The position numbers were made by a program, and so were the translations under genes. A DNA stretch of 64,000 nucleotides, from NCBI GenBank assembly GCA_964398885.1, contig CAYNOU010000005.1, positions 301 through 64,300 of the forward strand, given 5' to 3'. This DNA is from an uncultured Candidatus Cloacimonadota bacterium (GTDB taxonomy: Bacteria > Cloacimonadota > Cloacimonadia > JGIOTU-2). Under the pieces are notes generated by a model. The model searched no databases. It was given only the letters and a program-made list of their open reading frames with translations, and was not told the DNA's origin. Below are positions 3,413 through 24,035 of the stretch, piece by piece; within the stretch, counting starts at the first letter, position 1, and every line of letters begins with the position of its first letter.

Positions 3413-5386
3413 CTATATATCTGGAATAAAGACTTCCTTATTAGAAAGTATAGTTTTGATTCTTAAATCGTTTCCATCTGAAGAAAAAATAATCGCACCA
3501 TCTTCGTCTGTGCGGAAAAATCTTACATTATGACTTTGTAATCTACCCAATGCTTTTGTGCTGGGCAATCCATAACGATTATATTTACCAACAGAAATTG
3601 CTCCAAAATCTGGAGAAGTTAATTCTAAAAATTTATCTGTAGAAGAAGTGTTGCTTCCATGATGGCAAACCTTCAATACATCAATATCTAACCCTTTCTC
3701 ATATTTCTCACAAAGATAGAATTCAACTTCTTTTTCAGCATCACCAGTAAGGAGGAATGAAAAATTTTTATACTCGCATTTTAGGACTATAGAATAATTG
3801 TTGATGTTTTTACTTGAAAATCCAGAATATGGGGAAAGCAATTTAATCCTCATCCTGGGAAACTCATCAAAGACACGCAGTGTGTCCGCATAAATAATTT
3901 TAATATTCTTATCTTTTATCTTTTTACATAGATTATGGTAAAGTAAAGAATTATATTCACACTTTGGCATCAAAACCGATTTGACTTTTATCTTATCTAA
4001 AAGATAATTTGCTCCGCCTATATGGTCTGCATGTGGATGAGTAAGAACAAGCAAATCAAGCTTTCTAATTTGTTTTCCTTGCAAGAAAGGCACAACTACT
4101 TTTTCTCCAAAATCAATCTTGTTTGTCTTATCTCCTGTGTCTATCAATATGCTTTTTCTGGAGGGTGTCTGCAGATAAATTGCATCTCCAGTGCGAACAT
4201 CAAGAACCGTTAGTTCAATTTTAGGCGAGTATAAAAGTGCTGGCAGGAAAACTATACTTAAAATAACAAAGGCTGAACCTATGATATAGCTAACTTTTCT
4301 GAAGATTCTGTCTTTCTCTTTCCATATTAGAATCAAACAGATTAAGATTGAAAAGATACCAAAAACTTGCCACTTTTCAAAATTCAAAAAATCAAAGAGC
4401 AGAATTTTCCGGCTGCTGACTAAATGTGAAATTGCAAAAAGAATGTTAAGCAAAAATTTGTTTGCTGCTACATAATATACATTTATACCGGCAATTGGAA
4501 AGAATATAGTTAGAATTGACAAAGGCAGGATGACTGAAATAAGTGGAATCGCTACGACATTTGCCAATATCCCACCAAAAGCAATCTTATGAAAATAATA
4601 TACTGTAAGTGGAGAAAGCAGTAATTGAACTACAAAGCTAATTGCCATAAGATTCAAAAGCCAGTAAGGTAGTGCCCATCTTCCCTTCAGCCTATATAAA
4701 ATTTTGGCAAAGATAGGATAGACAACCAAAATAGCAAATACCGAAAGAAACGAAAACTGAAATCCAACACTGAAAATCTGCTGGGGATTAATCAACAAGA
4801 TTATAAAGCCAGCAGCAAATAGGATGTTTACACTATCCCCTTTCCGTTGTATAATTTTCGTAATTAAGAGAAGGCTAATCATAATTACAGCGCGCTGAAC
4901 TGAAGGGGCTGAATGCGAAAGCAAAACATAATAGAAAAGTACCAGGATGGTAAAAATTCTCGCTAAGTTTCGTTTCCGAATTATTACTTGCAAAAGTGTA
5001 AGAATAATTACAGCAATTACTCCTGTGTGAAGACCACTAACAGCCAAGATATGGCTCAAACCCGAATTTGCAAAATCTTCTTTAATATTTTTATCTAAAG
5101 CTTGTTTCTCGCCTAAAAGGATTGCTTTGAGAAATCCTGCCTCTTTTTGTGGAAATAGATTTTCAATACGGTTTCGTAACCATTTCCTTGGTTTGATTAT
5201 TAGAACAGAATAGAGGTTTTGCTGACCACTCTTTATTTTTATAGATTTAGAATAAAAAAAAGTAGTAGCATAAATACTCTTGCTTTCTAAATATTCTTTG
5301 TAATTGAAACTGTAAGGATTATTATTAGGATATGGTTCTTGCAGTTTACCATAGAAGAAAATGTGGTCACCATAGTTAGCGTTCAA
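3413..5386 (-). CDS. comEC: DNA internalization competence protein ComEC/Rec2 (membrane core plus C-terminal metallo-beta-lactamase domain)
   Basis: Polytopic membrane region; MBL motif THPHADHIGG; the track M is actually TTG (Leu), in-frame continuation of the upstream fragment. Confidence 0.8.
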   Translation of the reverse strand: MNANYGDHIFFYGKLQEPYPNNNPYSFNYKEYLESKSIYATTFFYSKSIKIKSGQQNLYSVLIIKPRKWLRNRIENLFPQKEAGFLKAILLGEKQALDKNIKEDFANSGLSHILAVSGLHTGVIAVIILTLLQVIIRKRNLARIFTILVLFYYVLLSHSAPSVQRAVIMISLLLITKIIQRKGDSVNILFAAGFIILLINPQQIFSVGFQFSFLSVFAILVVYPIFAKILYRLKGRWALPYWLLNLMAISFVVQLLLSPLTVYYFHKIAFGGILANVVAIPLISVILPLSILTIFFPIAGINVYYVAANKFLLNILFAISHLVSSRKILLFDFLNFEKWQVFGIFSILICLILIWKEKDRIFRKVSYIIGSAFVILSIVFLPALLYSPKIELTVLDVRTGDAIYLQTPSRKSILIDTGDKTNKIDFGEKVVVPFLQGKQIRKLDLLVLTHPHADHIGGANYLLDKIKVKSVLMPKCEYNSLLYHNLCKKIKDKNIKIIYADTLRVFDEFPRMRIKLLSPYSGFSSKNINNYSIVLKCEYKNFSFLLTGDAEKEVEFYLCEKYEKGLDIDVLKVCHHGSNTSSTDKFLELTSPDFGAISVGKYNRYGLPSTKALGRLQSHNVRFFRTDEDGAIIFSSDGNDLRIKTILSNKEVFIPDI

Positions 5387-5509
5387 TTGTCCAATAACTG
5401 TAGCGGAAAACTTACCAGAAACAGAGATTTGCTCAATTTTTTGGAGAGATAATATAAGTCTTGTTTGACTTGCAGAAGGAATTGGTTCACCTCGTTGTCC
5501 CCGATCTAA

Positions 5510-5824
5510 TCAGGGACTACTGGGTTCATCAAGGATACGAGCTGATATATGTAATTTCTGTTCTCCTAATTCATTAGTTATTTGTGAAATATGGTTTTTG
5601 GGACGAAGTGTTGAAAGAGAGAAGCGGAATGCACCAAAAGAAAGAACGAGTAAAAATAGTAAAAAAATTGGTTTAAATCTAAAAATTATAAGGGTTAAAA
5701 AACAACAAAGAAAAAAGATGAAATATATCCAAAAAGAAAGGTATAAAATATGACAAATTACTATGCCAAGAGCAAAGAATGTTGTAATCAGAATGAAAGG
5801 TTTATTTGAGATTTTCTCTACCAT
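5510..5824 (-). CDS. comEC: ComEC N-terminal fragment (DUF4131-like), separated from the main body by one in-frame TGA
   Basis: Same reading frame as 3413..5386; reads ...RILDEPSSP-TGA-LDRGQRGEPIPSAS...LNANYGDH. Confidence 0.6.
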   Translation of the reverse strand: MVEKISNKPFILITTFFALGIVICHILYLSFWIYFIFFLCCFLTLIIFRFKPIFLLFLLVLSFGAFRFSLSTLRPKNHISQITNELGEQKLHISARILDEPSSP

Positions 5825-5890
5825 TATATTTAGTAAAATGGTGAATTTGTTAACCAGTAAACTGGTTACTAATTTACAAGTTTACCAATT

Positions 5891-15069: not shown

Positions 15070-15257
15070 TATTTTAGCATAAAAGATTTTTTTTTGGCAG
15101 AGTCATAAGTTAATGCCGTAGGTTGAATGACCAACGGTATAAAAGAAGGCTTTATTAATCCTTTTGTTGTATTATCAATATATGTGAGATACTTTGACAA
15201 AGGCATCTCCAATACTTTAGAGAAGATTATTTTACTTATTTTTTGCTTATTTATCAT
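15069..15257 (-). CDS. Hypothetical small protein
   Basis: 62-aa ORF wedged between two genes, no recognisable motif. Confidence 0.2.
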   Translation of the reverse strand: MINKQKISKIIFSKVLEMPLSKYLTYIDNTTKGLIKPSFIPLVIQPTALTYDSAKKKSFMLK

Positions 15258-18200
15258 ATTTTTTTAGAAATCCTGATTTCTGTATGATCCTTCTTGAGTA
15301 TCTTATTCTTTATCTGTTCAGTAATTATTTTCTTAAGTTCAGATTCAGTATAGTTTAGCTTAGCCGCGTATTTTTGAATAATATCCTGGAATGCCTTATT
15401 TTCTCTAAATAGGTTCAGTTTATCAGTAAATACTAATAGGCTATCAGGCACAAATTTGAAAATATTTTCTATCGTATCTCTAAAGTGTTTCTCACTTTCC
15501 CTTCGTGCTTCTTCTGCTCGTTTGCGCTCAATAGCAATAGCAATTTGGTCTGAGGCAAATTCTAAAATCTCTAAATCTTTTTCATTATAGAGAGAAGCAT
15601 CAGTATAACTTTGAACAGCTATAACACCGATAATTTTTTTCTCTATTTTCAGAGGTATGCCAAGCCAGAGAGCAGATGATGAACCGAGTAGTTCTACTTC
15701 ACCTTTTTCTTCAAGTTTATTGAGAGAGTCCTCGGTAACGAAGATGGCTTTGCCGGTTCGCATAACATATTCTGTAAGCCCTTTTCTCGGTTTTCTGGGA
15801 GTAGGCTGGCTATCCTTTTCATCAACAAAGTAGGGAAAGGACATTAATTCTTTATCTTCATCGTAAAGTGCAATATAAAAGTTGGCAGTATCTATAACTG
15901 TGCTTAGATGCTGATGGATTGTTTGATAGAGTTCATCAAGGTTAGCAGTTGTGTTTATTGCATCAGAAATTTTATAGATTGCGGATTGCAATTTTTCAGC
16001 TTGTTTGCGCTCGGTGATGTCGCGAAATATACCTTGAAGCACTTTTTTATTCTTAAGTTCAATGATACTGGCTTTAATTGCAACCTCTTTGATTTCTCCC
16101 TTTTTGGTAATAACCTGTGTTTCCAGAACCTGCCCTTCTTTTTCCTTGAGGTGTTGTTTGAAAGTCCTGCTAAATTCTCCTTTGATTTCTTCTGGAGGAT
16201 GGAGAATCCGCTGGTGTTTACCAACAAATTCTGATTTCTCCCTGCCGACCAACTCTAATGATGCACGGTTACAGTCAATCAATATACCTGTTTCAGCATC
16301 AGCGATGACGATAGCGTCAAGTGAATCCTCAAACTGCTTTCTGTATTTTTCTTCAGATTTTTTAAGAGATTCTTCCATCCGCTTTCGCTTTATAGCCAGT
16401 GCAATTTCGTCAGAAACAAATTCTAAAATCGCTAAATCTTTTTTTGTATAAAGAGAAGCATCAGTATAACTTTGAACAACAACTACACCAATTACTTCAT
16501 TCTCTATTTTTAATGGAATTCCAAGCCAGATTTTTGAAGGGGTTCCAATCACCTCTACCTCTCCAGCTTGAATTAACTTCTCGCTAACCTCTTCAGTGGC
16601 AAGAAGTGATTTACCTATCTTTATTACATAAGCAGTTAATGTCTTTCCTGCTGGAAAAGTAGTAAATCTATCTTTTTCGTCAACATCATAGGGAAGCGCA
16701 ATAGTATCAGTTTCTTTATCATATAATGCTACATAATAATTTGTTGTATCAATAATTGTACTAAGTTGCTTGTGTATTATTTTGAAAAGTTCATCAAGGT
16801 CTTTAGAGGTATTTACAGCATCTGCAATATTATATAAAACTGATTGGATTTGCTCAGCTCTTTTACGGTCTGTGATATCCCTGGTAACTCCTCTGTATCC
16901 CAGCAAATTTCCTTTATCATCAAGTAAAGGAACAGCATTTGTTTCAAGAGAAACTATATGCCCATCTTTATGCACATTTTGACTTACCAGGTTTTTAACT
17001 TTTTCTTTCTCTTTAGAGCTTTCAAGTGCAGTTTTTTTAAATTTATCCTGCTCATCAGGAAGAGCGAGGTCATAGAAATGCTTACCCAACATTTCCTGAT
17101 ATTCATAACCAAGAACTTGCTTAACAATAGGACTGCTGTAAGTATAGCGTCCCTGGGCATCAGTTTCCCAGATCCAGTCACCAGTATTAGCTACGATATT
17201 TTGAAATCTCTCTTGAGATTCTCGTAATGCTTTTTCTTTTTCTGCAGTATCTTCAAGAATACTAAGCAATGATTTTCTGTTTTCTTCTGAGTCTTTATAT
17301 AGTTCTTCAATTTTCTCTTTGTCAGAAATAATTTGTTCTGTTTTTTTCTTTAGTTCATCCTCTACTTGATTCGCCTCGGTGATGTCTTCGTAGGTGGTTA
17401 TGTATTGTTTTCTTCCTTTTAGTGTTATTGAGATTCCTGAAATAGAAACTGGGATTTTCTTGCCATCCTTACTCTTCCTAACTGTTTCATGATAAAAGTA
17501 TCCTTCCTCTGCCCTCTCATTGAGATCCTCGGCTTCCTCCATCATTCCTTTGGGAACAACAACATCATCAATATTTTTTCCTTTTATCTCATCTAATTCA
17601 TACCCAAAGAGTTCTTTAAAATTGGAATTTATATCTAAAATTCGGAGGTTCTCGTCTATGTAAACTTGTGGTGCTGGATTCTTTTTGAATAGAGTCTTGA
17701 ATTTTTCCTCGCTCTCCCGTAGCGTATCCTCCGCTCGCTTGCGCTCGGTGATGTCCAAAATCTGAGCCATTGTCTTTACTTTTCCCGCTGAATCTTTGGT
17801 CACAGTAGAGCTGATTTCCACACGCCTCTTCTCACCGTCGTTCCGCATAATGTTTGACTCGTAACGGGGTGGAACCATCTCACCCCTCTGCCTTCTGATG
17901 TACCGATCTACAAGTAGTTGCTTGCTCTCTTCGTCGAGGAATTTGCGGAAATTCTGACCAATAATTTCCTCACGAGAATACCTGAAGGTTCGGCACAGTT
18001 CGTCGTTTACGTAGAGTAACCGATAGGCGTCATCCACAATAACTATTCCGTCGTGAGAATGTTCCACGATGGAACGGAACCGTTCTTCGCTTTCTCGCAG
18101 CGCCTTCTCCACCTGTTTGCGTTCTATAGCAATCGCAATCTCCTTGGAAACAAATTCTAAAATTTCTAAATCCTTTTCAGTATATAGAGAAGCATTAGTA

Positions 18201-19507
18201 TAACTTTGAACAGCCAAAGCACCAATAACCTTATTTTTAGTTTTAAGAGGCACGCCTATCCAAATCTTACTTTTCCAATCAGCTTGAGCAATTTTACCCT
18301 CTTTCATTAATTTTTCTCGCTTTTCTATAGTTAAATAAAGATGCTTTGCAGTATGAATTACATAGGCAGTTAATCCATTTTTTAATTGTTGTGGTTGTGG
18401 AATATTTTTTTTCAATTGGTCAACATAATAGGGTGCAGTTATTATATTGCTCTTTTCATCATATAGAGCGACATAAAAATTTGTTGTGTCCACAATTGTT
18501 CCAAGTTGTTTATGAATTAATTGATAGAGTTCATCAAGATCTTTAGTGGTATTTACAGCTTCGGCAATATTATAAAGAACTGATTGGACCTGCTCTGCTT
18601 GCTTACGTTCGGTGATGTCATCTATAACAGTAACAACCCGAACTACTTTGTTATTCTCTAAAATAGGTATTTTTCTGGTTTCTGTGGTAATTACTTTTCC
18701 AGCCAACTCATTTGTTTCAACAGTTATAAGCATTTTTCCAGTTTTAAAAACCTTTTGATATTCTTCACGAACAGCATCTGGCAAGAAAGGAAAGATATCA
18801 AAAATATTTCGACCGATTAAATTTTTTGTCTCAAGACCCAATTCTTTGTTCCATTGTTTGAAGGTTTCGTTAAAAAGGAGGATAGATAAATTCTCATCAA
18901 CAACATGAATAGCTTTGCCAATGGAGTCAATCGTTGAGTGGTATTGTTGTTCTGAATGTTTTAGCAGATCTTCTGTTTCCTTTCTAATCTGTATTTCCTT
19001 TTTAATGTTATCATGCGCCAAACAGGCATCTATTGCAATGCTCAACTTTTCTGAGAGACTGAGAAGCATATTGGCTAAAGTTTCATTAACAATTTCCTTA
19101 TTTGTATAAACCAGTTTAATTATTGCAACATTTTTTACAGGAACAATTAATATTGATTGTTCTTTTCCTGTTATTTTAAAACAGTATTGAAAGAAATCCT
19201 TATCGTCTCTGTTTTTTATTACGGGTCGTTGGTTTTCCCATATTTTTTCAAAAATATCTTGAAGAGAACTGACCCTTTTTTTAATATCTGCTTTAGTTAA
19301 TAATGAACCTGCTCTTGCGCCTAATTTGATATTCTCACCCTCTTTTTCACGAAGCCAGATACTTCCTCTTTGAGCATTTGTTTTATGGACAGTTGTATGA
19401 ATAACATCGTGAAGCATTTCTGAAAGGTTCAAACTGTTACCAATGGCAAGTGCACATTCGTAAGAAATGCTAAGTTTTTGAATGACAGATGTATTTTGTT
19501 TCTCCAT
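15254..19507 (-). CDS. Giant multi-PAS/GAF sensor protein with no recognisable output domain
   Basis: 1417 aa; N-terminal GAF, three PAS-GAF modules each opening ITERKQAEQ.QSVLYNIA.AVNT.KDLDEL, plus further PAS domains; no HisKA, HATPase, GGDEF, EAL or HD-GYP. Confidence 0.8.
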   Translation of the reverse strand: MEKQNTSVIQKLSISYECALAIGNSLNLSEMLHDVIHTTVHKTNAQRGSIWLREKEGENIKLGARAGSLLTKADIKKRVSSLQDIFEKIWENQRPVIKNRDDKDFFQYCFKITGKEQSILIVPVKNVAIIKLVYTNKEIVNETLANMLLSLSEKLSIAIDACLAHDNIKKEIQIRKETEDLLKHSEQQYHSTIDSIGKAIHVVDENLSILLFNETFKQWNKELGLETKNLIGRNIFDIFPFLPDAVREEYQKVFKTGKMLITVETNELAGKVITTETRKIPILENNKVVRVVTVIDDITERKQAEQVQSVLYNIAEAVNTTKDLDELYQLIHKQLGTIVDTTNFYVALYDEKSNIITAPYYVDQLKKNIPQPQQLKNGLTAYVIHTAKHLYLTIEKREKLMKEGKIAQADWKSKIWIGVPLKTKNKVIGALAVQSYTNASLYTEKDLEILEFVSKEIAIAIERKQVEKALRESEERFRSIVEHSHDGIVIVDDAYRLLYVNDELCRTFRYSREEIIGQNFRKFLDEESKQLLVDRYIRRQRGEMVPPRYESNIMRNDGEKRRVEISSTVTKDSAGKVKTMAQILDITERKRAEDTLRESEEKFKTLFKKNPAPQVYIDENLRILDINSNFKELFGYELDEIKGKNIDDVVVPKGMMEEAEDLNERAEEGYFYHETVRKSKDGKKIPVSISGISITLKGRKQYITTYEDITEANQVEDELKKKTEQIISDKEKIEELYKDSEENRKSLLSILEDTAEKEKALRESQERFQNIVANTGDWIWETDAQGRYTYSSPIVKQVLGYEYQEMLGKHFYDLALPDEQDKFKKTALESSKEKEKVKNLVSQNVHKDGHIVSLETNAVPLLDDKGNLLGYRGVTRDITDRKRAEQIQSVLYNIADAVNTSKDLDELFKIIHKQLSTIIDTTNYYVALYDKETDTIALPYDVDEKDRFTTFPAGKTLTAYVIKIGKSLLATEEVSEKLIQAGEVEVIGTPSKIWLGIPLKIENEVIGVVVVQSYTDASLYTKKDLAILEFVSDEIALAIKRKRMEESLKKSEEKYRKQFEDSLDAIVIADAETGILIDCNRASLELVGREKSEFVGKHQRILHPPEEIKGEFSRTFKQHLKEKEGQVLETQVITKKGEIKEVAIKASIIELKNKKVLQGIFRDITERKQAEKLQSAIYKISDAINTTANLDELYQTIHQHLSTVIDTANFYIALYDEDKELMSFPYFVDEKDSQPTPRKPRKGLTEYVMRTGKAIFVTEDSLNKLEEKGEVELLGSSSALWLGIPLKIEKKIIGVIAVQSYTDASLYNEKDLEILEFASDQIAIAIERKRAEEARRESEKHFRDTIENIFKFVPDSLLVFTDKLNLFRENKAFQDIIQKYAAKLNYTESELKKIITEQIKNKILKKDHTEIRISKKI

Positions 19508-19552
19508 TATTTATTCTCCCATTCCTATCCGTTCAGGCTCGGCCCGTCTAGG

Positions 19553-19590
19553 CTCCCGATATACCCCCGATTAAATCGGGGGGAGACTGG
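19553..19590. repeat. GC-rich hairpin (CCCGATATA family)
   Basis: CTCCCGATATACCCCCGATTAAATCGGGGGGAG. Confidence 0.5.
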
Positions 19591-19591
19591 C

Positions 19592-20710
19592 CTAACCGAG
19601 ACTAATAACTACAGTTTTATTATATAATTCTATATATTTATCACCTGTAGATGCGATTTCACCTAAACTTAAAAATCCAAATAACAAAACCCCTGTTCCT
19701 GCTTTGTTTTCAATAATTTTTAATTCATCCTCAAATCTATCTTCTAGAAATAAGGCTCTTGTAATGCAATCAATAATTAGAGCTTTTGTTGAGGATGTTT
19801 TCTTTTTGCTTTCAAAAGCATTTCTAGCTTGCGATGTTGCCAAACCTGCGGCAGCTATTAATTTTTCAGGACTTCCTTTCATAATCATCAATATGGAATT
19901 TTCAGGTATTTCGCTACTTAATAAGATATTGTTTTCTGCGTCAAATTCAATAGGAACCCGAAGGATGATTTCGTTGTCATATTTTAACATTCCAAGTGGG
20001 TATGATTTTGCAATCTCAAGGAAATTATCTTTGGTTAATTTGACTCCAGCATCTTTCTCAACAATTTTTTTATAATACTTAAACGCTGGTTCCCAGTTAA
20101 TTGATTTCAAAATATGTTTCTTTACACTGCTGGCAGTAGCAGGACCATAGATAGTTTGCCAACCGTGATTAACTCCGATGGATATGTAATCCTCAATAGA
20201 AGCGATAATAGCTCCACCTGCAAAGTAATCGTCACTTGTAAATAAAGATGGGCGTTTCATATCTATCAAACTGCCTGAGCCACCACCAATGAAAGTCATC
20301 TCTTTTCCGCTTATTTCATATAAAGTTTCTATAAGTAAAGGAATATTATTTGCCCAACCATCATTAAGTATAAAGAGAGTCTCAGTGTTTTTTGATATTA
20401 GTGTTTCTGGTAGGGCACCTTTAAAATCATTTAGATTTTTTATCACTTCAAGTGAAACAGAGGACTTAAATGAACAACCAACTACTCCCTGTTTAAACCG
20501 AGAACCATTATAGATTACTTCCGGGAAGATACCACCCCACACAGGGATTTTCATCTTTTTAAGAAGAGGTTGTATCTTTTCATAATCAAATTTTATTTCT
20601 TCTGCAACAAGTAATAGAATTCCTGTAGCATTGTCTTTACCAAGTTCATTTAGAAAGGGTTTCCACCCTTTTACCTTTTTACCTTCAAAAAACTCTATTT
20701 TTTTAAACAT
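19592..20710 (-). CDS. FIST-domain (N and C) signal-transduction protein
   Basis: Size (~370 aa) and sequence features resemble FIST N/C domain proteins; assignment from recall only. Confidence 0.45.
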   Translation of the reverse strand: MFKKIEFFEGKKVKGWKPFLNELGKDNATGILLLVAEEIKFDYEKIQPLLKKMKIPVWGGIFPEVIYNGSRFKQGVVGCSFKSSVSLEVIKNLNDFKGALPETLISKNTETLFILNDGWANNIPLLIETLYEISGKEMTFIGGGSGSLIDMKRPSLFTSDDYFAGGAIIASIEDYISIGVNHGWQTIYGPATASSVKKHILKSINWEPAFKYYKKIVEKDAGVKLTKDNFLEIAKSYPLGMLKYDNEIILRVPIEFDAENNILLSSEIPENSILMIMKGSPEKLIAAAGLATSQARNAFESKKKTSSTKALIIDCITRALFLEDRFEDELKIIENKAGTGVLLFGFLSLGEIASTGDKYIELYNKTVVISLG

Positions 20711-20711
20711 A

Positions 20712-20758
20712 ATTCTAATTGACTATTTTCTATTGACTATTTTCTATTGACAAAACCT
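20712..20758. promoter_or_regulatory. Array of three TATTGAC(T/A) iterons in the promoter region of the FIST gene
   Basis: AATTGACTATTTTCTATTGACTATTTTCTATTGACAAAACC with 14-15-bp spacing. Confidence 0.5.
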
Positions 20759-20759
20759 T

Positions 20760-21119
20760 TCAATTTTCAATTGATTTCCTTGCAGTCTTCCTGGATGAGA
20801 TAAAAATTGCTGTTAATTCTTCCGCTTCCTTTAACAAGGATTCAACAAGTTCCTTTTTCCGTAGTTTTTCCTCAATGATAAACTCCAGCCAAAAATACGA
20901 CTCATCTACTTCTTCTATTACAATACTCAATTTTGAAATGAAGCTTGCTCTGGATTGAGCAACACAAGAAGCTCTATAATTTGAAGCAACAGATGTTGCA
21001 GATCGTATTAATTGCCCCTTGATATGATTACTTAAATATGTATTGGGTAATGACATTGTAAGCTTAACACAGCGATGCGCAAACGCCTTTGTTCTCTGCA
21101 TTAATTCTTTCTTATCCAT
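20760..21119 (-). CDS. Four-helix-bundle protein (TIGR02436 / Avd-like, formerly the 23S rRNA intervening-sequence protein family)
   Basis: Characteristic pattern ...LPNTYLSNHIKGQLIRSATSVASNYRASCVAQSRASFISKLSIVIEEVDESYFWLEF. Confidence 0.75.
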   Translation of the reverse strand: MDKKELMQRTKAFAHRCVKLTMSLPNTYLSNHIKGQLIRSATSVASNYRASCVAQSRASFISKLSIVIEEVDESYFWLEFIIEEKLRKKELVESLLKEAEELTAIFISSRKTARKSIEN

Positions 21120-21160
21120 GATTAATTTGTTATCTTTTATCTTCGATTTCTAATTTTTAA

Positions 21161-21207
21161 TTGACAATCGTCAATAGTAAATTGTCAATAGTAAATTGTC
21201 AATAGTT
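21161..21207. promoter_or_regulatory. Inverted array of three TATTGACA iterons upstream of the four-helix-bundle gene
   Basis: TTGACAATCGTCAATAGTAAATTGTCAATAGTAAATTGTCAATAG, the reverse complement of the iteron in the array at 20712. Confidence 0.5.
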
Positions 21208-21211
21208 TGTT

Positions 21212-21695
21212 TACACTCCATATTTCCTTTTTTCACTGAGTCGTCCTAAAAGTTTATTTATTTCTTCTTTTAATTCAATAACACGGGATTCTCTATTCTT
21301 AGTAATATTATAATAAAGTTGAAGTTCACTCATTTTTTCTTGCAATTTTTTATTTGCTTGTTTTCTTTCTGTGATATCTCTGCCAAAACTAACGGTTCCA
21401 ATAACTTTTCCATTTTTATAAAATAGTAATATCCTATACCAATATTTTTTAAAGCTTGTGCTTCTCCTTTAATGTAGTCCAATTTTTGTGATAATTCTAA
21501 AGCTTGATTGCCGTATTCTACTGCTTTTTGGGGTGATTCGTTCCAGTAGGCTTTTCCTAATTCATTTAAAATATCAACCTTTTCTATACCGGTAGCTTTT
21601 TCCAACTGCGACTCAAGACTGTCTATTTTCGTTTGAGAAAACAGAAGATTGCTATAAATAAAGAAAATAAATAAAATAATTAAATACTTTTTCAT
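21212..21695 (-). pseudogene. Decayed TPR-PAS sensor gene (signal peptide plus TPR N-terminus joined out of frame to the last strand of a PAS domain and a coiled-coil tail)
   Basis: ORF 21330..21695 encodes signal peptide + TPR; a +2 frame from ~21425 reads [62 protein letters not shown]; the tail is paralogous to the C-terminus of 22518..24035. Confidence 0.5.
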
Positions 21696-21721
21696 ATTAA
21701 CAATACACTAATTAGGCCTTA

Positions 21722-21836
21722 AGACTCATCAGACTGGACTTCACACCGATTCATCGGGGTGGAGTTCAGGATGCTCTTTCGTCTCGAGTCCAGTCTCGCT
21801 GTCGCTCCTCTGAACTCGAGTCTTCATTCTAAGAGG
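21722..21836. repeat. REP-like repeat (left flank of RAYT)
   Basis: CTTAAGACTCATCAGACTGGACTTCACACCGATTCATCGGGGTGGAGTTCAGGATGC...GAGTCCAGTCTCGCTGTCGCTCCTCTGAACTCGAGTCTTCATTC. Confidence 0.6.
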
Positions 21837-22399
21837 AGTTCAGCAAACTCTTTCTCCTTGAGATATTTCTTATAACATTTTATTTGCTGTTTATATAATG
21901 TAGCATTTCCAAAATATATTTTCAGCAATTCATCATTAAATAAGATATCATTTCTTTTACCTATCCATTCAAGATAATTAGAATATTTCCAATCCGAAAG
22001 ATTATCCACTAATCCTGCTTTTTTAGGATTATAATGAATATACTGGCAGAGAGAAATTATATAATTTTCTTTTTTTATTCTCTTATGTTGTAAAGGTCCT
22101 TGGTATAAACGTCCTTTTCTTACATATTTACTATTGTAATGTTGCACATAAGAGTTATTTAAGTCATTGAAAATTTGATAAATAGGTTTGTCATCGTCTT
22201 GTCGTAGAAGAAAATGAAAATGATTTGGCATCAAGCAGTATGCAAAAACAGAAGCAGGATAAGCAATAATTTTTGGTTTGAATTTATCCAAAAAATATGA
22301 ATAATCATCATCACTTACGAAAAGCAATGTATTATTTATAGAATGATTATAAAGATGGAAATACTCTCCTTTTATAAATTTTTCTTTTTTACATCGCAT
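21824..22399 (-). CDS. tnpA: REP-associated tyrosine transposase (RAYT, IS200-like Y1 transposase)
   Basis: HuH motif PNHFHFLL; catalytic Tyr region CQYIHYNPKKAG; 191 aa. Confidence 0.8.
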   Translation of the reverse strand: MRCKKEKFIKGEYFHLYNHSINNTLLFVSDDDYSYFLDKFKPKIIAYPASVFAYCLMPNHFHFLLRQDDDKPIYQIFNDLNNSYVQHYNSKYVRKGRLYQGPLQHKRIKKENYIISLCQYIHYNPKKAGLVDNLSDWKYSNYLEWIGKRNDILFNDELLKIYFGNATLYKQQIKCYKKYLKEKEFAELLLE

Positions 22400-22402
22400 A
22401 GT

Positions 22403-22515
22403 TTTTATTCTTCCTTAAGCAGACTAGACTTCACGCCGAATTTATTCGGAGTGGAGTTCAGAATGCGAACATTCCGACTCAAGTCCAGCGTCGCTACGCT
22501 CCTCTGGACTTGAGT
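22403..22515. repeat. REP-like repeat (right flank of RAYT)
   Basis: CTTAAGCAGACTAGACTTCACGCCGAATTTATTCGGAGTGGAGTTCAGAATGC...CAAGTCCAGCGTCGCTACGCTCCTCTGGACTTGAGTCTTCATTC. Confidence 0.6.
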
Positions 22516-22517
22516 CT

Positions 22518-24035
22518 TCATTCAACCACTTTATACTTTGCCTCTTTACCCAATTTCTCAAGAAGTTCATTTACCTCCTTTTTCAGTTCAATCATTCTTA
22601 ATTCTCTTCCAATAGCTAATTTGTTGAAAGCTTCCAATTCTTCATTTTTCTTTTTAAGTGCTTCTTCTATTTGCTTGCGCTCAACGACTGCGGAAAACTC
22701 TGTTGCTACTGCTTTGCCAATATTAATATCATCCTGGCTCCAGTTGTGTACTTTGTCATCATGAAGATAGAGAACGCCATTAATATTACCATTAGAATTT
22801 ATACAAGGTATAATAAGATAAGCAATCAATTTTGCTTTTTGCCATTTTTCTTTATATTTTTCGTACCAATATTTTTCACGCACATCATTAACTACAGAAA
22901 TTTCTTTTTTTTCATACGCAGCCTTTGTATCTTCTCCTCGTTTAGTAATTGGAATAAGCGATTCAATACCCGGGAAGTTTTCTCTTTCATCTGAAATTTG
23001 CCAATCCTTTTTTGAATCAACTTTTGCTCTAAATACGACACGGGGGAGATTTAGCCCAATTCTAATAGCTTTTAAAGCGATTAAAATAGCTTTTTTAAAA
23101 TCAGGTTCAAGAAGACTTAGAACTACATCTTGTAAAATTTTTCTGTTGCGTAGTTCTTGTTTCAAAGATTTTTCAATGTTTTTCAAAAGAGTAATATCAC
23201 GCTGTGTTCCCCAACAGCGGATTAGAGAGCCATTTTCAATAATTCCGATTAGATTATTGAGATACACATGAATTATTCCTTTAATATCAGGTTCATGGGA
23301 TTCTCCATCAATAAGCCGAAAGTCACTGTGGATAAAGTTTTTTAGGTATTCAATATTTCTTTTATCAGTAGGAACAAGAAGATTTTCCAGCTTGGTTCCT
23401 ATTATATCTTCTCTCTTTTTAAATCCATACATTTGTGCCATCATATTGTTGCATTCAACAAGAGTTCCAGTAGCATAGATTTGTTCTATAATCTCATCTT
23501 CGTCAAGGTCAATAGGAATTGGCTCGGCAGATTCAAAACACCAGATACCTTCTGAGCTGCTCTGTATAAATGCACGATAGCGTTCCTCGCTTCTTTTTAA
23601 CTTTTCAGCAGATATTTTTTGTTTCTGCTCTATTTTCCATTGAGTTAGTGCTTTTTTTATTACATCAGGGATTATTTCAAGGTATCTCCCCAAAGGGTCT
23701 TTTACTATGTAATCCTGGGCGCCTAATTTGATTGCCTCTGCAGCGATAGATTCGTTCCCAGAGGCTGCTACAAAAACAACTGGGACATTTAGTTTGTTCT
23801 TCTTTATCTCTTTTAAAAGTTCAAGGCCATTCTCATCTGGGAGTTTATAATCAATTAGAACTATATCAAATGAGGCGGAGCAAAGATGTTGGATTGCATC
23901 TTTTCCTTGCTTTACCCAAAGTATTTTGCAGTCAAGCTCACTCTTGTCCAATGCTCTATTCATAGCAATGTAATCATGTTTGATATCTTCAACAAAAAGG
24001 ATTTTTAACTTTTTTTTCATAATTTTTTCTCCCAT
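22518..24035 (-). CDS. Response regulator (N-terminal receiver) with PAS/GAF-like sensory domains and a C-terminal coiled coil
   Basis: REC: KILFVEDIKHDY...DIVLIDYKLPDENG...VVFVAASGN; PAS end motif TQRDITLLK; no DNA-binding or enzymatic output recognised. Confidence 0.75.
   Translation of the reverse strand: MGEKIMKKKLKILFVEDIKHDYIAMNRALDKSELDCKILWVKQGKDAIQHLCSASFDIVLIDYKLPDENGLELLKEIKKNKLNVPVVFVAASGNESIAAEAIKLGAQDYIVKDPLGRYLEIIPDVIKKALTQWKIEQKQKISAEKLKRSEERYRAFIQSSSEGIWCFESAEPIPIDLDEDEIIEQIYATGTLVECNNMMAQMYGFKKREDIIGTKLENLLVPTDKRNIEYLKNFIHSDFRLIDGESHEPDIKGIIHVYLNNLIGIIENGSLIRCWGTQRDITLLKNIEKSLKQELRNRKILQDVVLSLLEPDFKKAILIALKAIRIGLNLPRVVFRAKVDSKKDWQISDERENFPGIESLIPITKRGEDTKAAYEKKEISVVNDVREKYWYEKYKEKWQKAKLIAYLIIPCINSNGNINGVLYLHDDKVHNWSQDDINIGKAVATEFSAVVERKQIEEALKKKNEELEAFNKLAIGRELRMIELKKEVNELLEKLGKEAKYKVVE

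Follow-up and report, generated by a model that had tools for sequence, protein, structure and literature searches.

Within a 64,000-nt stretch of Candidatus Cloacimonadota DNA (contig CAYNOU010000005.1; hereafter, the window), positions 20713-21207 hold a gene for a four-helix-bundle (4HB) protein of the PF05635/TIGR02436 family, enclosed by two inverted arrays of tandem 7-nt repeats. In a comparison of ~155 homologous genes that represent two PF05635 subfamilies and many phyla, approximately three-quarters had inverted heptamer arms of ~32 nt. Gene and repeats together make up a single conserved module of strict geometry, which cultured organisms such as Nostoc punctiforme PCC 73102 carry as well. 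On balance, we favor the explanation that the segment is a copy of a cassette representing the non-rRNA counterpart of the intervening sequences (IVSs) of 23S rRNA, which by analogy would be transcribed with its host genes, paired through its arms, and processed by RNase III. The heptamer-armed design around PF05635 genes has apparently not been reported so far; our literature search found no paper tying PF05635 generally to heptamer arrays, with a coverage that was sparse for subscription journals, so that an earlier description is possible. A preliminary description of the locus, made from the sequence letters, had noticed the two arrays, but it missed the heptamer unit, the family-wide architecture, and the parallel with 23S rRNA IVSs that contain an open reading frame (ORF).

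Paired heptamer arrays around a four-helix-bundle gene

The array adjoining the downstream gene carries, on the plus strand, the copies TAATTGACT (20716-20724), TATTGACT (20731-20738), and TATTGACA (20745-20752), with a spacing of 14 nt. Three copies of TATTGAC(T/A) at ~14-bp intervals had been proposed here; the spacing holds, and the first copy deviates slightly in that it reads AATTGAC. The threefold reverse-complement motif proposed for the second array was found as GTCAATAG, starting on the plus strand at 21170, 21184, and 21198, again 14 nt apart and with a single sense ATTGACA beside it at 21160, and the TAATT..TTGAC start said to be common to both arrays on the plus strand is real (repeat family D1). 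The true repeat unit is 7 nt, with ATTGACn alternating with ATTT(A/T)Cn, and this alternation of two heptamer forms produces the apparent 14-bp period. Tandem Repeats Finder detected the arrays with period 14 at 20713-20751 (2.7 copies) and 21166-21206 (2.9 copies; for both scores, see table 1); both also scored at period 7, and they ranked first and second among the 71 tandem-repeat rows reported for the 64 kb. A repeat search aligned the two arms (20718-20751 and 21170-21203) as a 34-nt inverted repeat with 88% complementarity and a separation of 418 nt.

The motif CTATTGAC occurs nine times in the window, compared with an expectation of 1.85 ± 1.3, and none of 100 shuffles reached nine; five of the nine copies fall inside the two arrays. 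When the whole window was searched, no TTGAC-N9-TTGAC was found outside the arrays, and the flanks of the gene gave an inverted-repeat score of 51, whereas shuffles averaged ~17 and did not exceed 29. Thus, sequence, repeat finders, and shuffles agreed that the two arrays bracketing the 4HB gene are real, and the counter-case raised in the preliminary description, a -35 box repeated by chance, was ruled out, since shuffled sequences did not reproduce the arrays and the window has no others like them. The RNA duplex predicted for the two arms reached -33.6 kcal/mol, compared with -11.3 ± 3.0 kcal/mol in shuffles, and the arm pairing was present in both the minimum free energy and the centroid folds of a 521-nt RNA.

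Arm, leader, ORF, and arm fill the space from the upstream stop codon to the start codon of the downstream FIST gene almost exactly: the 5' arm begins 4 nt past the TAA stop (21213-21211) of an upstream gene remnant, and the 3' arm stops 2 nt ahead of the FIST ATG (20710). All neighbors of the window cassette lie on the minus strand, and a sequence scan of the region revealed no terminator-like site between the cassette and these neighbors. The antisense unit GATTGTCAATTAAAAATTAG, which opens the leader, can pair with the last units of the 5' arm (local inverted repeat 21152-21168/21181-21197), and inspection of the leader revealed no clear Shine-Dalgarno sequence. No Rfam family, rRNA included, was matched in 19000-23000 at E ≤ 1.

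The family assignment given in the preliminary description was borne out, because the protein scored 76.2 bits against TIGR02436 (cut-off 24) and 53.2 bits against PF05635 (cut-off 33.8), and its AlphaFold model (pLDDT 95.1) consists of four helices. The model resembled BT_0352 (2RLD; TM 0.85-0.90), which the window protein also matched at E = 3.6e-15, and Xcc0516 (2GSC; TM 0.80-0.85); the 2RLD crystal structure has five chains, and Xcc0516 has been described as a pentamer (PMC4990558). The window protein is basic (pI 9.3), and its gene showed a dN/dS of 0.11-0.12 in comparisons with loci L092 and L089; judged from these substitutions, the 4HB protein is under purifying selection and functional. 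Four PF05635 proteins were submitted to PADLOC, and none matched a defense system. Avd of the diversity-generating retroelements (DGRs) is likewise small and basic and has the same four-helix-bundle fold (4DWL and 8UB7; TM 0.72-0.78); however, it shares only 14% identity with the window protein, which stands much nearer to BT_0352 and Xcc0516, and the bAvd model PF22296 was not reported at E ≤ 0.01. A DGR context was rejected, as no reverse transcriptase was present among the genes within ±6 kb; template and variable repeats were not searched separately.

Recurrence of the cassette in two PF05635 subfamilies

One search returned >4,400 close relatives. The window is identical to JGI metagenome contigs, and among named relatives, metagenome-assembled genomes of candidate division WOR-3 came closest for the cassette as well as for its neighbor genes. 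From a one-genome-per-species scan with 183 relatives, the best 80 (63-84% identical) were taken and completed with two closer relatives (up to 89% identity); the array counts for this set 1 cover 81 genes, and its members belong to Desulfobacterota, Bacteroidota, Balneolaceae, Planctomycetota, Cloacimonadota, KSB1, and Ignavibacteriales. Within 150 nt, arrays of period 7, 14, or 21 occurred on both sides of 47/81 genes, on one side of 27/81, and on neither side of 7/81, and the unit A-T-T-G-A-Y-T was in sense orientation upstream and in antisense orientation downstream of the gene. A second, unrelated PF05635 paralogue, met by chance in locus L045, served as the query for set 2, which comprises 80 metagenome loci with 42-65% identity to that paralogue. 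Of the 83 genes counted in this set, 33 were flanked by arrays on both sides and 27 on a single side, whereas 23 had none. The heptamers of set 2 differ wholly between loci (AGTGGTT, CAGGGGT, CAGTTCT, TTAGTAT, AGTGGCC, and others), whereas the heptamer type agrees between the two arms of one locus: the own 3' arm was the best partner of the 5' arm in 35/76 loci, and the arm-pair score averaged 33.8 within the own locus, compared with 15.3 for other loci.

Such arrays were concentrated around the genes. Between 73% and 75% of the genes lay above the 99th percentile of geometry-matched random positions on the same contigs, and the density of heptamer arrays was 2.9 and 2.1 per kb near the genes of sets 1 and 2, compared with 0.18 and 0.27 per kb elsewhere; for arrays of other periods, the enrichment near the genes was only approximately twofold. 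In set 1, 70% of the spacers beside the genes carried arrays, compared with 10% of the other spacers on the same contigs.

The geometry was equally regular. Arm length had a median of 32 nt (4.6 units) and a mode of 4-5 units in both sets, the median position of the 5'-arm start relative to the upstream stop codon was -0.5 nt in set 1 and -3.5 nt in set 2, with 88-94% of the 5' arms beginning ≤15 nt from this codon, and the median distance from the end of the 3' arm to the next ATG was 7 and 12 nt, respectively. The neighbors were mostly co-oriented with the 4HB gene, both in set 1 (upstream, 74/76; downstream, 76/80) and in set 2 (upstream, 49/62; downstream, 47/57). The simplest reading is that the cassette is bounded by the outer ends of its arms and sits in sense orientation in the short spacer between two operon genes; the window cassette, with gaps of 4 and 2 nt, is typical in this geometry.

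The same design was observed in cultured organisms; Gracilimonas mengyeensis DSM 21985 and Mariniflexile are cultured carriers as well. On pNPUN02 of N. punctiforme PCC 73102, perfect arms, (CAATTCG)4.7 and (AATTGCG)4.9, surround the 4HB gene NPUN_RS35560, the 4HB genes of Planktothrix agardhii and Gloeocapsa PCC 7428 have inverted heptamer arms as well, and on the 239-kb pNFSY06 of Nostoc flagelliforme, inverted arms were present at 5/5 annotated four-helix-bundle genes. An exception was the Bernardetia 4HB gene, whose arms are direct rather than inverted. In P. agardhii (p1; L194, 909-1738), each arm joins heptamers of two types, AATCCCC and AATCGTA. This cassette and that of Gloeocapsa PCC 7428 (L195) lie in defense loci: the neighbors of the former are DISARM drmD and a restriction-modification gene of the MmeI type, and those of the latter are a DUF1156 gene and a gene for a HEPN (Swt1) protein.

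Heptamer type and protein identity varied together. Different 4HB paralogues on one contig carry different heptamers (in L045 and in L119), whereas the two L077 paralogues, which are 88% identical, have one heptamer type in common. On pNFSY06, a 4HB identity of 73% went with a 1-nt difference (AATTCGC vs AATTCGT), an identity of 55-57% with AATTCAA, and an identity of 28-31% with the unrelated AGCAGGG. Part of the arm core is conserved, both as ATTGAYT (8.0 bits, compared with 4.9 bits in controls) and as nnYnAGT (4.05 bits, compared with a control maximum of 3.2 bits). These sequence comparisons indicate that the cassette evolves as a unit of gene and arms. They could also mean that the arms bind the 4HB protein of their own cassette, at approximately one protomer per 7-nt unit and on RNA or single-stranded DNA, for autoregulation, protection, or propagation; such binding would be compatible with arms that act as an RNA stem or at the DNA level. 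The matching of heptamer to paralogue, the conserved core, and the mode of 4-5 units in both subfamilies alongside pentameric crystallized homologues speak for it, as do the basic character of the protein and the RNA binding of the Avd fold in the DGR ribonucleoprotein (8UB7). However, common descent of the whole cassette explains the co-divergence of gene and arms equally well, and at least some subfamilies (L199 and Planktothrix) have arms of the opposite polarity with respect to the ORF. We regard specific binding as improbable.

Allelic states of the cassette site and gene-less arrays

Orthologous sites were recognized by the end of the upstream PAS sensor (...KYGV*) together with the start of the downstream FIST protein (MFKKI...); the C-terminus of the 44-aa ORF upstream of the window cassette also precedes the cassette site in L092, L089, L200, and L197/L198. 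When the locus was compared across relatives for presence or absence of the segment, as suggested in the preliminary description, naive, arms-only, and full states were found (table 1). The arms-only spacer of L200 folds into a hairpin of -14.9 kcal/mol (z = -4.1). Deletion of 428 nt (21152..20725) from the window leaves a 78-nt spacer that agrees with L200 at 70/79 positions, and parsimony favors L200 as a deletion product rather than a landing pad, because the more distant L092 also has the cassette. The 428-nt indel is edged by AAAAT direct repeats; since these fall inside the repeat array, a reading as target duplication is ambiguous, and the outer flanks of the cassette (TAA-ACAA... and ...GAATT-ATG) have no repeat in common. 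A BLASTP comparison of the window protein with the PF05635 proteins of L199 and L196 gave no significant similarity; three unrelated PF05635 subfamilies have used the junction. Because naive, arms-only, and full alleles exist at one orthologous site, the sequences indicate that the cassette is a discrete insertion/deletion module and that the same site was occupied repeatedly. The small cassette with terminal inverted repeats envisaged in the preliminary description therefore stands as far as its anatomy is concerned, whereas transposon-like mobility received no support, as neither a transposase nor a clear target duplication was found.

These alleles also bear on the proposal that the arrays are operators or promoters (-35 boxes or iterons) through which the FIST and 4HB genes would be controlled together. 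The hexamer TTGACA occurs three times in the 5' arm, one copy being part of a promoter-like match (TTGACA-17-TACTAT, 10/12 positions), and each array lies directly upstream of a start codon. However, promoter-like matches in the region were at the level of shuffles (15 compared with 13.4), the heptamers of other subfamilies (AGTGGTT, CAGGGGT, CAATTCG, and others) are unlike TTGACA, and the arrays accompany the 4HB gene across phyla, whatever gene comes next, whereas the FIST orthologues of L197/L198 have no arrays and that of L089 has only a relic. The shared operator set suggested in the preliminary description is thus largely refuted, and we consider a regulatory origin of the arrays very improbable.

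Gene-less forms of the arrays were found as well. On pNFSY06, 13 of 52 arrays adjoin the five 4HB genes, an ~15-fold enrichment given that the adjoining regions make up 1.6% of its bases. Of the 32 other period-7 arrays, 17 match the heptamer type of a resident cassette (null 17.5%, p = 5e-6), and many of the cassette-type arrays are gene-less inverted pairs, inside which no remnant of a 4HB ORF was detected. Gene-less heptamer hairpins were also present among the fetched relative loci. These results suggest that cassettes either give rise to arms-only elements or use them as targets. Two gene-less pairs on pNFSY06 (L203/L204; 120050-120222 and 174399-174533) have the internal sequence GAATAATAAGAATAATTTTGAATTAATTAATTC ... 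GCCCCCACTGA in common and look like a small family of non-coding elements with cassette-type arms.

Such findings raise the alternative of a DNA-level mobile element, in which an enzyme encoded elsewhere would use the arms as ends for recombination or transposition, or as sites that form hairpins when the DNA is single-stranded; arms-only hairpins would then be excision footprints or landing pads, and RNA pairing would be incidental. The allelic states at a single junction occupied by three unrelated subfamilies, the short direct repeats at the edges of the 428-nt indel, and the gene-less pairs of cassette heptamer type in the same contig or replicon would all be expected, as would the possibility of several cassettes per genome and the occurrence of 65-89% identical 4HB proteins across phyla. 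The inverted ends, the gene-less hairpin derivatives in the same genome, and the presence/absence alleles are also features of miniature inverted-repeat transposable elements and repetitive extragenic palindrome (REP)-like elements; the cassette differs from these in having heptamer arrays of variable length as ends, no cognate transposase, and no clear target duplication. In addition, the cassette encodes the 4HB protein and neither transposase nor recombinase, its termini are undefined, its arms change length in 7-nt steps, and the locus is stable across genera (e.g., Mariniflexile) and identical in eight metagenome contigs. The strong co-orientation with host genes would be unexpected for a purely DNA-level element. 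Taken together, we judge this alternative to be a serious one, though not probable.

A gene at 21824-22399 (minus strand) in the window encodes a Y1 (IS200-like) transposase of RAYT (REP-associated tyrosine transposase) type, with an NF047646 score of 64 bits, below the cut-off of 80. The gene was rejected as a partner of the cassette because no homologue was present at ~190 other loci, and its proximity appears coincidental. Upstream of the cassette, a 121-aa ORF (21211-21695, minus strand) with a signal peptide and a TPR-like N-terminus overlaps the 44-aa ORF, and the region looks like an internally deleted, decayed sensor gene. On the other side of the FIST gene, 15254-19507 (minus strand) encodes a 1417-aa sensor protein with three near-identical GAF-PAS modules, in which the motif AEQ.QSVLYNIA.AVNT.KDLDEL occurs three times.

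Further arrangements were noted in other loci. In L089, the spacer upstream of FIST (2392-2475) has no cassette and contains a nested double hairpin (GGAGTGC/ATCAAC..GTTGAT/CTGTGAC..GTCACAG/CACTCC), with the relic TCAATCGTCAATTG directly ahead of the FIST ATG; around the 4HB gene of the same locus, an ~60-nt direct duplication (GATTGGGAACAAGGAAAAAGTTAAAAGG...GTGAATTGC) lies on either side (4880-4960 and 5385-5450), and the ORF has the antisense array CAATTGTCAATAGTCAATAGAAAATA on both of its sides. Arrays of ATTGACT with up to ~18 units were observed in giant-virus-like IMG/VR contigs (L101, 4756-4809; L108, 3974-4098), and one array of this pair adjoins an Erv1/Alr gene; neither has a 4HB gene in its vicinity. 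In Planctomycetota contigs, the genes enclosed by inverted arrays (ATCGCGT and ATAGCGG types) are pseudopilin-like genes of type II secretion instead of a 4HB gene.

Table 1. Features of the window cassette, alleles of the PAS-FIST junction, and arrays around pseudopilin-like genes
Locus	Feature	Position	Strand	Description
Window	5' arm	21166..21207	-	CTATTGAC-AATTTA x2.9, ~six heptamers ATTGACA/ATTTACT; Tandem Repeats Finder score 75
Window	Leader, 5' arm to ATG	21120..21165	-	Opens with a short antisense unit
Window	4HB gene	20760..21119	-	119 aa, PF05635/TIGR02436 (S23p) family
Window	3' arm	20713..20753	-	GTCAATAG-AAAATA x~2.7, antisense heptamers; Tandem Repeats Finder score 69
Window	428-nt segment	20725..21152	-	Leader, ORF, and inner 3'-arm units; difference from the arms-only L200 allele
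Window	Downstream host, FIST_N/FIST_C gene	19592..20710	-	372 aa, co-oriented with the cassette, right-hand flank
Window	Upstream host flank	21211..21345	-	44-aa ORF ending ...LSEKRKYGV*, left over from a PAS sensor gene (3' end)
L092	Junction allele			FIST 80% identical to the window; same cassette, 4HB 89% identical
L200	Junction allele			FIST 87% (closest relative); 73-nt spacer without ORF, in which 3'-arm units come right after the 5'-arm units
L197/L198	Junction allele			FIST 74%; naive 52-nt spacer without heptamers
L199, L196	Junction allele			FIST 74-75%; other PF05635 genes at the same place, other heptamers
L089	Junction allele			FIST 70%; only a relic before FIST, cassette behind a different PAS gene
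L025	Pseudopilin-bracketing arrays	5108-5833
L029	Pseudopilin-bracketing arrays	5126-5712
L047	Pseudopilin-bracketing arrays	4633-5177

Parallel with 23S rRNA intervening sequences and wider meaning

Coxiella burnetii and Leptospira are among the bacteria whose 23S rRNA genes contain IVSs with an ORF for an S23p (PF05635) protein. In Coxiella, the IVS consists of an S23p ORF with a 28-bp terminal inverted stem that is cut by RNase III, and tandem GACAGAT heptamers, whose copy number varies between strains, lie upstream of the ORF at the cleavage site (PMC4990558). The Coxiella ORF has been reported as decaying and untranslated, and ORF-containing IVSs are regarded as selfish elements of unknown mobility (PMC4990558). 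The window cassette resembles them in its PF05635 ORF placed in a loop, in the adjoining tandem heptamers, in the inverted arms that close a long stem, and in its sense orientation to the host genes, as an IVS is embedded in sense in its host transcript. Unlike the IVSs, it lies between protein-coding genes and not in helix 25 or 45 of 23S rRNA, and unlike the Coxiella IVS, its arms are made wholly of heptamers and its ORF is under purifying selection (dN/dS 0.11). The cassette thus agrees with the IVSs in every testable feature except the location in 23S rRNA.

By analogy with the IVSs, the cassette would be transcribed within the RNA of the host operon, its arms would pair into an imperfect stem of ~35-45 bp that loops out the ORF, and RNase III would cut this stem, splitting the cassette RNA from the flanking cistrons. 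Such a cut would also affect FIST translation, given that the 3' arm extends up to the start codon of FIST. The co-orientation rule fits a dependence on host transcription; in this subfamily, the TTGACA boxes of the 5' arm also make an own promoter possible.

Several observations weigh against this RNA-stem explanation. Transcripts from a promoter in the 5' arm would be without most of that arm, and the whole-cassette fold was no more stable than shuffles (z = -1.5), with only the closing stem standing out. Genes without any array remained in both sets (7/81 and 23/83), and in set 2, the control restricted to intergenic regions was weak (36% compared with 19%, n = 21) because long spurious ORFs hide spacers in G+C-rich contigs. 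Arrays also exist without the gene: none of the 18 IMG/VR viral contigs with an exact (ATTGACT)x3 had a 4HB gene nearby, and 39 of the 52 arrays on pNFSY06 lie away from 4HB genes. Finally, the tolerance of G:U pairs by strand gave no signal, with 12 sense-compatible versus 24 antisense-compatible cases in set 1 (p = 0.07) and 73 versus 64 in set 2 (p = 0.49). Arm complementarity could therefore equally be a product of DNA-level processes or of a copying mechanism, so that analogy and folding are what the RNA-stem model rests on, and the lack of an RNA-specific wobble signature in the arm mismatches counts in favor of the DNA-level alternative.

The arms also recall the heptamer repeats of other bacteria. 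The TAACTGA repeats of Beggiatoaceae, Cyanobacteria, and Bacteroidetes often stop a few nucleotides before a start codon (PMC4679880), the GGGAATC repeats of Xanthomonas form 70-75 convergent inverted pairs, and Anabaena has GGGGAYT repeats (PMC4692102). The respective papers proposed binding of S1, Csp, or CsrA, or G-quadruplexes, and drew no link to PF05635 genes (PMC4679880, PMC4692102). Like these and the short tandemly repeated repetitive (STRR) sequences of cyanobacteria, the cassette arrays are tandem 7-nt units in short intergenic spacers near start codons, and the Planktothrix arms include AATCCCC, the complement of GGGGATT; unlike STRR-type repeats, they are matched inverted pairs around one gene family. 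In a figure legend of a large clustering study, "23S rRNA IVP" is named among CRISPR-array-associated proteins (PMC10910872). Arrays of period 14 or 21 beside 4HB genes may confuse repeat and CRISPR-array finders as well as operon annotation.

Because the module is conserved and occurs in allelic states, the role of the arms, the role of the protein, and the origin of the heptamers are directly testable, and the arms might be an RNase III substrate, a protein-binding site, or a recombination site. To our knowledge, the very large PF05635/TIGR02436 family has no known function outside DGRs, and we know of no explanation for either the PF05635-bearing 23S rRNA IVSs, a puzzle since the early 1990s, or the excess of 7-nt tandem repeats such as STRR, TAACTGA, and GGGAATC in many bacteria; the cassette design may tie these two old puzzles to each other. 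A more speculative proposal, to which we give little credence at present, is that PF05635 cassettes are a so far unrecognized, cross-phylum class of operon-embedded selfish elements, similar to IVSs but outside rRNA, whose pentameric protein would read its own arms and whose turnover would seed intergenic heptamers. If so, the insertion of cassettes, their deletion to hairpins, and the spread of these hairpins would have seeded much of the STRR, TAACTGA, and GGGAATC/GGGGAYT repeats.

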